This document shows positions 3,951-55,003 of a DNA stretch of 64,000 nt, piece after piece. The DNA is taken from the NCBI RefSeq assembly GCF_036507355.1, contig NZ_AP027877.1, one strand, 5' to 3'. A model generated the notes under the pieces. The model ran no database searches. It was not told the origin of the DNA and worked only from the letters and a program-made list of their open reading frames with translations. Every line of letters starts with the position of its first letter. Position 1 is the first letter of the stretch. Source of the stretch: Escherichia coli (GTDB taxonomy: Bacteria > Pseudomonadota > Gammaproteobacteria > Enterobacterales > Enterobacteriaceae). The position numbers were made by a program, and so were the translations under genes.

Positions 3951-5303
3951 ATGAGTTCTTTAAGTCAGGCTGCGAGCCGTGTGGAAAAACGCACGAATGC
4001 TCGTTACTGGATAGTGGTGATGTTGTTTATCGTCACATCCTTCAACTACGGCGACCGCGCTACGCTTTCTATTGCCGGTTCGGAAATGGCCAAAGATATC
4101 GGCCTTGATCCCGTGGGAATGGGCTATGTGTTCTCTGCCTTCTCATGGGCTTATGTTATCGGGCAGATCCCTGGTGGTTGGTTGCTGGATCGTTTTGGTT
4201 CAAAACGCGTCTACTTCTGGTCGATCTTTATCTGGTCGATGTTTACCTTGCTGCAAGGCTTCGTCGATATCTTTAGTGGATTCGGCATTATCGTTGCCCT
4301 GTTTACTCTGCGCTTCCTGGTCGGGCTTGCTGAAGCGCCATCTTTCCCCGGCAACAGTCGCATTGTTGCGGCCTGGTTTCCGGCGCAGGAAAGGGGAACG
4401 GCGGTGTCGATTTTTAACTCCGCTCAATACTTCGCAACGGTGATCTTCGCGCCGATTATGGGCTGGCTGACGCATGAAGTGGGCTGGTCACACGTCTTCT
4501 TCTTTATGGGCGGTCTGGGCATTGTCATCAGCTTTATCTGGTTGAAAGTCATCCACGAGCCAAATCAATATCCGGGGGTAAATCAGAAAGAGCTGGAGTA
4601 CATCGCCGCGGGTGGCGCGCTGATCAATATGGATCAGTAAAACACCAAAGTTAAAGTGCCGTTCAGCGTGAAGTGGGGGCAGATCAAACAACTGCTCGGG
4701 TCACGGATGATGATCGGCGTTTATATTGGTCAGTACTGTATCAACGCCCTGACTTACTTTTTCATTACCTGGTTTCCGGTTTATCTGGTGCAGGTGCGTG
4801 GGATGTCGATTCTGAAAGCGGGCTTTGTGGCTTCCGTTCCGGCGGTTTGCGGTTTTATCGGCGGTGTGCTGGGTGGGATTATTTCCGACTGGCTGATGCG
4901 CCGCACGGGATCGCTGAACATTGCGCGTAAAACACCGATCGTAATGGGCATGTTGCTGTCGATGGTGATGGTGTTCTGCAACTACGTCAACGTTGAGTGG
5001 ATGATCATCGGCTTTATGGCGCTGGCCTTCTTCGGTAAGGGCATTGGGGCGCTGGGTTGGGCAGTAATGGCAGATACCGCACCAAAAGAGATCAGCGGTC
5101 TTTCCGGTGGCCTGTTCAACATGTTCGGTAACATTTCTGGCATCGTCACGCCAATCGCAATTGGTTATATCGTTGGCACGACTGGCTCCTTTAATGGGGC
5201 GCTGATTTATGTTGGTGTTCATGCCTTAATCGCGGTACTGAGCTACCTGGTGCTGGTGGGCGATATCAAGCGTATCGAGCTGAAACCTGTCGCGGGGCAA
5301 TAA
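3951..5303 (+). pseudogene. gudP: Glucarate/galactarate MFS transporter GudP, interrupted by one in-frame TAA at 4638-4640
   Basis: Track ORFs 3951-4640 and 4656-5303 are in the same frame and together give a full 12-TM MFS protein; only one stop codon separates them. Confidence 0.75.
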
Positions 5304-50665: not shown

Positions 50666-52027
<1,362 letters not shown>

Positions 52028-52166
52028 AACGTGAGGAAATACCTGGATTTTTCCTGGTTATTTTGCCGCAGGTCAGCGTATCGTGAACATCTTTTCCAGT
52101 GTTCAGTATGGTGCCCTGCACGGTAATTATGTCACTGGTTATTAACCAATTTTTCCTGGGGGATAA

Positions 52167-53306
52167 ATGAGCGCGGGAAGCCCAAAATTCACCGTTCGCC
52201 GCATTGCGGCTTTGTCACTGGTTTCGCTATGGCTGGCAGGCTGTTCTGACACTTCAAATCCACCGGCACCGGTCAGTTCCGTCAATGGCAATGCGCCTGC
52301 AAATACCAATTCTGGTATGTTGATTACGCCGCCGCCGAAAATGGGGACGACGTCTACAGCGCAGCAACCGCAAATTCAGCCGGTACAGCAGCCACAAATT
52401 CAGGCTACTCAACAACCGCAAATCCAGCCAGTGCAGCCAGTAGCTCAGCAGCCGGTACAGATGGAAAACGGACGCATCGTCTATAACCGTCAGTATGGGA
52501 ACATTCCGAAAGGCAGTTATAGCGGCAGTACATACACCGTGAAAAAAGGCGACACACTTTTCTATATCGCCTGGATTACTGGCAACGATTTCCGTGACCT
52601 TGCTCAGCGCAACAATATTCAGGCACCATACGCGCTGAACGTTGGTCAGACCTTACAGGTGGGGAATGCTTCCGGTACGCCAATCACTGGCGGAAATGCC
52701 ATTACCCAGGCCGACGCAGCAGAGCAAGGAGTTGTGATCAAGCCTGCACAAAATTCCACCGTTGCTGTTGCGTCGCAACCGACAATTACGTATTCTGAGT
52801 CTTCGGGTGAACAGAGTGCTAACAAAATGTTGCCGAACAACAAGCCAACTGCGACCACGGTCACAGCGCCTGTAACGGTACCAACAGCAAGCACAACCGA
52901 GCCGACTGTCAGCAGTACATCAACCAGTACGCCTATCTCCACCTGGCGCTGGCCGACTGAGGGCAAAGTGATCGAAACCTTTGGCGCTTCTGAGGGGGGC
53001 AACAAGGGGATTGATATCGCAGGCAGCAAAGGACAGGCAATTATCGCGACCGCAGATGGCCGCGTTGTTTATGCTGGTAACGCGCTGCGCGGCTACGGTA
53101 ATCTGATTATCATCAAACATAATGATGATTACCTGAGTGCCTACGCCCATAACGACACAATGCTGGTCCGGGAACAACAAGAAGTGAAGGCGGGGCAAAA
53201 AATAGCAACCATGGGTAGCACCGGAACCAGTTCAACACGCTTGCATTTTGAAATTCGTTACAAGGGGAAATCCGTAAACCCGCTGCGTTATTTGCCGCAG
53301 CGATAA
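52167..53306 (+). CDS. nlpD: Murein hydrolase activator lipoprotein NlpD (LysM and M23 domains); rpoS promoters are known to lie within it
   Basis: 379-aa ORF with lipobox LAGC and Q/P-rich tandem repeats. Confidence 0.9.
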
Positions 53307-53368
53307 ATCGGCGGAACCAGGCTTTTGCTTGAATGTTCCGTCAAGGGATCACGGGTAGGAGCCACCTT

Positions 53369-54361
53369 ATGAGTCAGAATACGCTGAAAGTTCATGATTT
53401 AAATGAAGATGCGGAATTTGATGAGAACGGAGTTGAGGTTTTTGACGAAAAGGCCTTAGTAGAAGAGGAACCCAGTGATAACGATTTGGCCGAAGAGGAA
53501 CTGTTATCGCAGGGAGCCACACAGCGTGTGTTGGACGCGACTCAGCTTTACCTTGGTGAGATTGGTTATTCACCACTGTTAACGGCCGAAGAAGAAGTTT
53601 ATTTTGCGCGTCGCGCACTGCGTGGAGATGTCGCCTCTCGCCGCCGGATGATCGAGAGTAACTTGCGTCTGGTGGTAAAAATTGCCCGCCGTTATGGCAA
53701 TCGTGGTCTGGCGTTGCTGGACCTTATCGAAGAGGGCAACCTGGGGCTGATCCGCGCGGTAGAGAAGTTTGACCCGGAACGTGGTTTCCGCTTCTCAACA
53801 TACGCAACCTGGTGGATTCGCCAGACGATTGAACGGGCGATTATGAACCAAACCCGTACTATTCGTTTGCCGATTCACATCGTAAAGGAGCTGAACGTTT
53901 ACCTGCGAACCGCACGTGAGTTGTCCCATAAGCTGGACCATGAACCAAGTGCGGAAGAGATCGCAGAGCAACTGGATAAGCCAGTTGATGACGTCAGCCG
54001 TATGCTTCGTCTTAACGAGCGCATTACCTCGGTAGACACCCCGCTGGGTGGTGATTCCGAAAAAGCGTTGCTGGACATCCTGGCCGATGAAAAAGAGAAC
54101 GGTCCGGAAGATACCACGCAAGATGACGATATGAAGCAGAGCATCGTCAAATGGCTGTTCGAGCTGAACGCCAAACAGCGTGAAGTACTGGCACGTCGAT
54201 TCGGTTTGCTGGGGTACGAAGCGGCAACACTGGAAGATGTAGGTCGTGAAATTGGCCTCACCCGTGAACGTGTTCGCCAGATTCAGGTTGAAGGCCTGCG
54301 CCGTTTGCGCGAAATCCTGCAAACGCAGGGGCTGAATATCGAAGCGCTGTTCCGCGAATAA
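53369..54361 (+). CDS. rpoS: RNA polymerase sigma factor RpoS (codon 33 is GAG, intact)
   Basis: 330-aa product starting [14 protein letters not shown] inside the longer track ORF. Confidence 0.95.
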
Positions 54362-54378
54362 GTAAGCATCTGTCAGAA

Positions 54379-54412
54379 AGGCCAGTCTCAAGCGAGGCTG
54401 GCCTTTTTCTTT
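54379..54412 (+). terminator. Rho-independent terminator after rpoS
   Basis: aaggccagtctcaagcgaggctggcctttttcttttg. Confidence 0.8.
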
Positions 54413-54480
54413 TGTTTGGGAAGCTTGTGTTTTTGTCGCCTGGATAAGACACGTCAGCGTCCTACCCGGCAATTTGCATC

Positions 54481-54888
54481 CTATGTGTTCATCATCTTGC
54501 GCACCAGCTGCACAAACAGCTCCTGCTCTTCTGCACTCAAACGCCCCAAAAATTCCTCATCCACGCTGTCACCAATCGGTATCGCCGCAGCAAGTATCTT
54601 TTCTCCTTCGGCAGTCAGCCAGACAAAGCGACGCCGCTTGTCAGCGGCATCATGTTCACGTCTGACTAAGCCACGATTCTCCATTCTTGCCAACATTTCT
54701 GCCAACGTTGCTTTGGTGCTGACTGCTGCTTCTATCAGTGCCACCTGTTCGATACCAGGCTTATCAGCAATGGCGCGCATCACCGCATACTGTGGTTTGG
54801 TCAGGTCAGGTAACTCGTGCTGCCAGCGAGCCGTGTGCTGCTGAAAAAGCTGTCGTAACTGATGGAACGCTTTATTTCGTAACGCCAT
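54481..54888 (-). CDS. MarR/SlyA-family transcriptional regulator, divergent from the decarboxylase operon
   Basis: 135-aa ORF with winged-helix region. Confidence 0.8.
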   Translation of the reverse strand: MALRNKAFHQLRQLFQQHTARWQHELPDLTKPQYAVMRAIADKPGIEQVALIEAAVSTKATLAEMLARMENRGLVRREHDAADKRRRFVWLTAEGEKILAAAIPIGDSVDEEFLGRLSAEEQELFVQLVRKMMNT

Positions 54889-55003
54889 GTAAACTCCGGG
54901 CTAATTCTCTGTCGCTATCATAGCGGTTTTTTAGTGACGAAGAAGATGTTGTTACTTTTCAATCCTTGCCGCTGTGGAAATGAAGGAGTATGTTAATAAT
55001 AAC

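Follow-up and report, generated by a model that had tools for sequence, protein, structure and literature searches.

The nlpD gene of Escherichia coli carries a run of similar glutamine- and proline-rich codons, which raises the question of whether this is a true tandem repeat that changes in length between strains or an invariant linker, and of what the repetition does for the protein. We examined this run in a 64,000-nucleotide stretch of E. coli DNA, referred to here as the window, in which the gene order is truD-surE-pcm-nlpD-rpoS and nlpD lies between pcm and rpoS (52167..53306, forward strand; 379 aa). The gene was identified from the list of open reading frames, from Pfam matches to LysM and Peptidase_M23 and from the RefSeq nlpD annotation of the homologous gene. 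[quoted passage not shown] The window protein has a signal peptide and lipobox LAGC (52167..52244, forward strand), read off the sequence as ...SLWLAGC26 followed by SDTS, with the codon of the lipidated Cys26 at 52242-52244 (forward strand; lipoprotein-signal role from PMC5533458); a LysM domain at aa 123-165 (52533..52661, forward strand; PF01476, E = 2.7e-12); and a C-terminal LytM/Peptidase_M23 domain at aa 279-372 (53001..53282, forward strand; PF01551, E = 4.6e-33). The LysM domain directs the septal localisation of NlpD (PMC5533458).

Several observations concern the gene as a whole. In the RefSeq/PGAP annotation nlpD begins at a TTG that lies 45 nt after the ATG and encodes 364 aa (window 52167-52214; loci L001-L005 and L008-L017), and the ATG start at 52167 gives the 379-aa form, the sequence named NLPD_ECOLI in UniProt; the two start choices put one NlpD protein into two 90% clusters of the protein collection (P0002 and P0005). 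Five of 5,426 complete E. coli genomes gave zero match to the 5' part of nlpD, and the sole match of O55:H7 DEC5A to the nlpD 5' probe was a spurious 49 bp in flhA, so that the gene is apparently deleted or disrupted in those five genomes and in DEC5A. The N-terminal ~80% of NlpD is joined to RpoS region 4 in one protein of 403 aa (P0087, with LysM and Sigma70_r4) and to UbiD-family (UbiD-like decarboxylase) sequence in two others (P0045 and P0092). These chimeras look like assembly artefacts or like natural deletions that took out the 3' end of nlpD along with some or all of rpoS.

Tandem Repeats Finder reported one array in nlpD (52365-52429; period 24, 2.7 copies, 70% matches, score 67), and a second repeat search recovered three 28-nt copies at a spacing of 24/24 with 71-86% identity. 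Read in frame on the forward strand, unit 1 (52362..52385; CAGCAACCGCAAATTCAGCCGGTA) is CAG CAA CCG CAA ATT CAG CCG GTA and encodes QQPQIQPV, unit 2 (52386..52409; CAGCAGCCACAAATTCAGGCTACT) is CAG CAG CCA CAA ATT CAG GCT ACT and encodes QQPQIQAT, and unit 3 (52410..52433; CAACAACCGCAAATCCAGCCAGTG) is CAA CAA CCG CAA ATC CAG CCA GTG and again encodes QQPQIQPV. Units 3 and 1 differ at 4 nt, and every change is synonymous. A degenerate fourth unit, QPVAQQPV (52434-52457, forward strand), follows, and a closing CAG (Q) ends the element at 52460. An earlier note, made from the letters of the window, had described three imperfect repeats of 24-27 bp at 52364-52437; three units are indeed present and the coordinates were correct to within 2-4 bases, but the period is exactly 24 bp and matches the codon register. 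The same note placed (QQPQIQPV)-type units in the NlpD linker, and this is where they lie, between Cys26 and LysM.

The three units are far from identical in DNA, and the exact words of at least 8 nt shared within the array are few: 12 nt at a spacing of 72, 11 nt at 48, 9 nt at 24, and 8 nt at spacings of 9 and 60. The 11-nt word CAACCGCAAAT occurs at 52365..52375 and 52413..52423 (spacing 48), and the 12-nt word CAGCCGGTACAG at 52377..52388 and 52449..52460 (spacing 72), all on the forward strand. The 8-nt word at a spacing of 9 belongs to a 9-bp mini-repeat, CAGCCAGTG CAGCCAGTA, encoding QPV QPV (52425..52442, forward strand). In the window, unit 1 ends in GTA instead of GTG, and it is this GTA that creates the 12-nt exact word. 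We also note that the 5' nlpD haplotype of the window (52167-52620, 454 bp) is matched at ≥99% identity in only 44 of 5,421 genomes, with 5,375 genomes at 95-99% identity and strain PS10-3 at 100%; the window carries a minority DNA haplotype, yet its protein is identical to that of K-12.

Because Q/P-rich coding sequence is low in complexity, the array might be a chance resemblance within a compositionally biased stretch. It is, however, the top-scoring tandem repeat of the 64-kb window, and in dinucleotide-preserving shuffles of the window none of 100 reached its score of 67 (best 61, mean maximum 43). The exact match between period and codon register and the existence of reciprocal deletion and duplication alleles with junctions inside the repeat, described below, also run against coincidence, and together with the shuffles they refute it, leaving this explanation a negligible probability. 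Apart from the array, one tandem repeat in the window scores ≥50, at 4216-4245 (15 bp x 2, 93% matches); its score of 53 falls inside the shuffled range, the maximum of which is 61.

Within the protein, the array occupies part of an N-terminal low-complexity linker (aa 27-101; 52245..52469, forward strand; 77% P/Q/S/T/N/G/A) that spans from Cys26 to the conserved ENGRIVYNR...LysM block, ahead of the first folded domain. The repeat segment, residues 66-98, is 48% Q and 21% P and makes up the distal third of this linker; it is the most variable stretch of NlpD across Enterobacteriaceae. NlpD has two linkers predicted to be disordered, the N-terminal one by DISOPRED, and a fusion of the N-terminal linker alone shows weak midcell enrichment (PMC5533458). 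An AlphaFold2 model built on a 17-sequence alignment had a mean pLDDT of 31 and was low in LysM and LytM as well; the assignment of disorder to the linker draws on composition and on the published predictions. When residues 29-64 are deleted, ~60% of NlpD stays in the inner membrane and function is impaired, which shows this part of the linker to be needed for efficient Lol-dependent targeting to the outer membrane (bioRxiv 10.1101/2021.01.05.425367); this deletion stops just before the repeat segment. As a separate observation, one E. coli NlpD allele of 340 aa (P0030) is without 39 aa of the second linker (QPTITY...VPTAS, between VAVAS and TTEP), indicating that the LysM-LytM linker too has natural in-frame length variants.

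We determined how often the array differs in length by searching 5,426 complete E. coli genomes, in 5,420 of which the region is present. Queries were the real allele and synthetic alleles, with E-value gates set to pass only near-full-length single megablast HSPs; the gates were checked against simulated alleles built solely on the background of the window, and the genomes were counted through these gates rather than read one by one. The reference-length gate passed 5,344 genomes, but the simulated control showed that it also lets ±9-bp alleles through, which places the reference length at ~5,333 of 5,420 genomes (98.4%). The remaining alleles are -48 bp (61 genomes), -9 bp (7), +9 bp (4), -72 bp (2) and +48 bp (1, strain PapRG-04-4), so that 75 of the 5,420 complete genomes carry one of these alleles. 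Synthetic queries for a -24 bp allele in three registers of units 1-3, a +24 bp allele in five registers and a +72 bp allele each returned 0 complete genomes; among longer alternating arrays +96 bp was likewise absent, and the +48 strain was the sole exception. These zeros hold for the alleles queried; the census did not extend to a -24 register taking out the degenerate fourth unit or to intermediate indels (-36 bp, for example). A further 12 of the 5,420 genomes, with ≥80% of the 219-bp probe covered and no long HSP, stand outside the allele counts.

Exact-sequence look-ups in a collection of ~15 billion proteins, made in the K-12 protein background and counted by contigs, extended this series. 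The reference allele was found on at least 1,000 contigs, followed by +3 aa (234), -16 aa (160), -3 aa (83), -8 aa (25, and two further singletons), -24 aa (20, with another 38 on a T228A background), -20 aa (14), +16 aa (6) and +8 aa (3). Single-unit steps, that is, the -8 and +8 aa alleles, appear only in this protein collection. On a non-K-12 background there is also a +24-aa allele (P0003, locus L007), and a relative ~91.5% identical in DNA (P0004, locus L006) has seven units by way of a perfect 72-bp block duplication.

The comparison across E. coli genomes proposed in the earlier note therefore shows that length is not identical in all strains, and its expectation that copy number could vary between strains holds to the extent of alleles from -72 to +48 bp, though these are rare. 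Its description of the repeats as slippage-prone is overstated, since the units are only 71-86% identical in DNA. The array is variable among strains, yet rarely so, and far from hypervariable. Every sequenced variant keeps the reading frame. These results also bear on whether the array could be a contingency locus, in which slippage would switch nlpD, and possibly read-through into downstream rpoS, on and off. In favour of such phase variation, the array sits in a gene of the nlpD-rpoS operon and its length variants recur, but a 24-bp unit means that whole-unit changes preserve the frame, the units are not near-identical as such a switch would need, and variants are confined to ~1.6% of genomes. 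Moreover, ~300 bp separate the end of the array from the -35 box of the main rpoS promoter, which lies downstream (coordinates from PMC1852560). The unit length, the in-frame alleles, the low identity between units and the distance to the rpoS promoter exclude a phase-variation switch, which we regard as very improbable.

The junctions of the variant alleles indicate where the changes arise. In seven of eight sequenced -48 carriers the junction unit starts as unit 1 and finishes as unit 3, and the +48 allele is the reciprocal chimera of this junction; the 11-nt word is the crossover site for most -48 alleles and for the +48 allele. The eighth -48 carrier, PEC145, has a different junction, with unit 1 kept whole. 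The 12-nt word is the crossover site of both the -72 alleles (Z142-6 and USMARC-49610) and the +72 allele (GCA_044690665). Deletion and duplication products thus both occur and are reciprocal at shared words, and breakpoints track the longest residual exact words (11 and 12 nt), not unit boundaries. The ±9-bp alleles probably come from the QPV-QPV mini-repeat, which they match in size and position, and the -20-aa allele, known as protein only, matches the 60-bp spacing of an 8-nt word and may have arisen there. Length changes mostly by 48, 72 or 9 bp; the positions of the longest words probably set these steps, the independent events being too few for proof. We infer from this pattern that slippage or unequal exchange probably acts over short homology, rather than single units being gained and lost one at a time.

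The -48 deletion recurs. Across ~8 kb each, the eight sequenced carriers represent at least five local haplotypes that are 28-117 SNPs apart, and PEC145 adds its distinct junction. Within O157:H7, the carrier TW14359 and a strain with three units are 3 SNPs apart per 8 kb. Among the 61 genomes with the -48 allele, 28 form one O157:H7 group that includes TW14359, EC4115, SS17, SS52, JEONG-1266, RM6067W and others, presumably the clade 8 / lineage I/II strains; the remaining carriers belong to several backgrounds.

We also record differences in and around rpoS in the genomes compared. The RpoS accession is WP_000081559.1 in O157:H7 TW14359 (L016, -48) and WP_000081550.1 in O157:H7 7636 (L015). 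Downstream of rpoS, the window has an ORF for a MarR-family regulator (54481-54888 and beyond, reverse strand; compare L014, L009 and L011), and related genomes have the MarR ORF followed by hydroxyarylic acid decarboxylase B/C/D genes; in K-12, P276M and PEC145, rpoS is followed directly by ygbN. This difference is the known variable rpoS-mutS segment, and the -48 nlpD allele is found with either arrangement. In the K-12 derivative ER1821R (L014), the annotation lists rpoS as a pseudogene because of an internal stop, which we take to be the familiar K-12 rpoS amber allele.

We compared the QQPQIQ core across seven units, the three of E. coli and the four distinct ones of L006: all six wobble positions vary, the other twelve positions are invariant and there is zero amino-acid change. 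The chance of six-for-six synonymous changes is ~2e-5 by a crude calculation that counts 3 of 18 sites as synonymous. The last two codons of the unit vary freely, encoding PV, AT, PI or SA in the seven units and SV in E. fergusonii. Such a pattern suggests that the repeat is old and has been conserved as a peptide as its DNA drifted apart. Divergence restricted to wobble positions leads to low DNA identity between units, which would in turn make slippage rare.

The same divergence speaks to the idea that the peptide is incidental and that the repeat acts as nucleic acid, either as RNA structure or as protein-binding DNA, on expression of nlpD-rpoS. Its place in the nlpD-rpoS operon is the sole hint of this. 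Scanning 51000-55000 against Rfam gave zero family matches, the repeat search found no inverted repeats in nlpD, and divergence between units at synonymous positions points to constraint on the peptide, not on the nucleotides; we accordingly give a nucleic-acid role hardly any credence.

The distribution in relatives shows how far the repeat extends. E. fergusonii and an unclassified Escherichia lineage also have three units. The Q/P-rich stretch of Salmonella, Citrobacter, Kosakonia, Enterobacter, Lelliottia and Atlantibacter is comparable in length, holds a single PQIQPVQ core and forms no clean array, and in Yersinia the region is absent (PMC2736372). As a side observation, in the NlpD of Salmonella bongori (P0055) the segment aligned to ITPPPKMG...PQIQPVQ reads NHTAAKNGNDDAADTATSAANSTCSA, which is similar in length and unlike every other homologue; it looks like the product of paired compensating frameshifts or of sequencing errors in the linker.

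Conservation of this kind is what would be expected if the QQPQIQ units were functional peptide motifs, for instance ones docking to a periplasmic or outer-membrane partner or to peptidoglycan, with copy number under selection. That six wobble positions vary across seven units and no amino acid does, that QQPQIQ is strictly conserved across units and Escherichia lineages, and that E. coli, E. fergusonii and the unclassified lineage each retain three units all suggest more than a generic spacer, as do the exact reference length in 98.4% of E. coli genomes and the weak midcell enrichment of the linker-only fusion (PMC5533458). Alleles with a single unit nevertheless persist (61 complete genomes, including the established O157:H7 group), as do -72 bp alleles in which the segment is reduced to one unit plus Q; other Enterobacteriaceae manage with one PQIQPVQ core and Yersinia with none, and there is no known partner. 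Only the peptide-motif reading still competes with a generic spacer, and we consider it unlikely.

What we consider probable is that the array is an old, imperfect, in-frame coding minisatellite that forms a flexible linker spacer and in which length changes are rare and tolerated. The three QQPQIQxx units and the degenerate fourth encode the last, Q/P-rich third of the N-terminal linker, through which the LysM and LytM domains are joined to the lipid anchor of NlpD. As a flexible, extended spacer, the segment may allow outer-membrane-anchored NlpD to reach septal peptidoglycan and activate AmiC, and as part of a disordered N-terminal stretch it may aid Lol-dependent sorting. Replication slippage or unequal exchange between the residual words (12 nt at 72, 11 nt at 48, 8 nt at 9) would occasionally change its length, yielding in-frame alleles, from about -24 to +24 aa, which are apparently tolerated and probably close to neutral. 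One could go further and propose that unit number tunes NlpD, through septal reach, the timing of AmiC activation or Lol sorting, that the 16-aa deletion of O157:H7 is adaptive and that the wobble-only divergence of the core reflects a specific interaction; we regard this as speculative and improbable.

The repeat is real, ordinary and already known since nlpD was first sequenced: the title of Ichikawa et al. 1994 (J Bacteriol 176:1630, cited in PMC2736372) mentions repeats in nlpD. Another study sequenced nlpD only in its 3' part, from -657 relative to rpoS (PMC1852560). Searches of the available literature found no report of length polymorphism of nlpD, of a 48-bp deletion in O157 or of a link to VNTR/MLVA typing. 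The function of NlpD is well studied, the significance of the present results is small, and the length polymorphism, at population level, is a small detail of a feature already on record. The additions are the census of length alleles, the location of breakpoints at residual exact words and the finding that the -48 deletion marks an O157:H7 group and recurs elsewhere. This 48-bp deletion could serve as a minor typing marker. Counted after the first, intact QQPQIQxx units number 0 to 4 in the natural alleles of E. coli and 6 in a related lineage, a series that is usable for testing linker length against function in an outer-membrane-anchored amidase activator.

Set against known systems, the window NlpD is identical to that of K-12 as a protein and alike in its pcm-nlpD-rpoS context, and differs in its DNA haplotype. 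The repeat segment (66-98) lies in one of the N-terminal linkers described as disordered for RcsF, Pal and NlpD (El Rayes et al., bioRxiv 10.1101/2021.01.05.425367); it is of low complexity and directly downstream of, and outside, the 29-64 deletion made in NlpD in that work. The array is like the coding minisatellites, or VNTRs, of bacterial envelope proteins in its head-to-tail in-frame units, its recurrent reciprocal length alleles and its lineage-marking allele, here the -48 allele in O157:H7. It has tandem copies beyond chance and varies between strains as a VNTR does, but mostly does not change by one unit at a time, and unlike the VNTRs used for typing its units are far more degenerate (71-86% identity) and the locus is far less variable (~1.6% non-reference). 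The (Glu-Pro)n/(Lys-Pro)n region of TonB is a proline-rich, periplasm-spanning spacer. By analogy, the NlpD segment is likewise P-rich and repetitive and probably provides an extended link from a membrane anchor to a periplasmic domain; it differs from the TonB spacer in being composed of Q/P/I/V and uncharged, and in having its anchor in the outer rather than the inner membrane.
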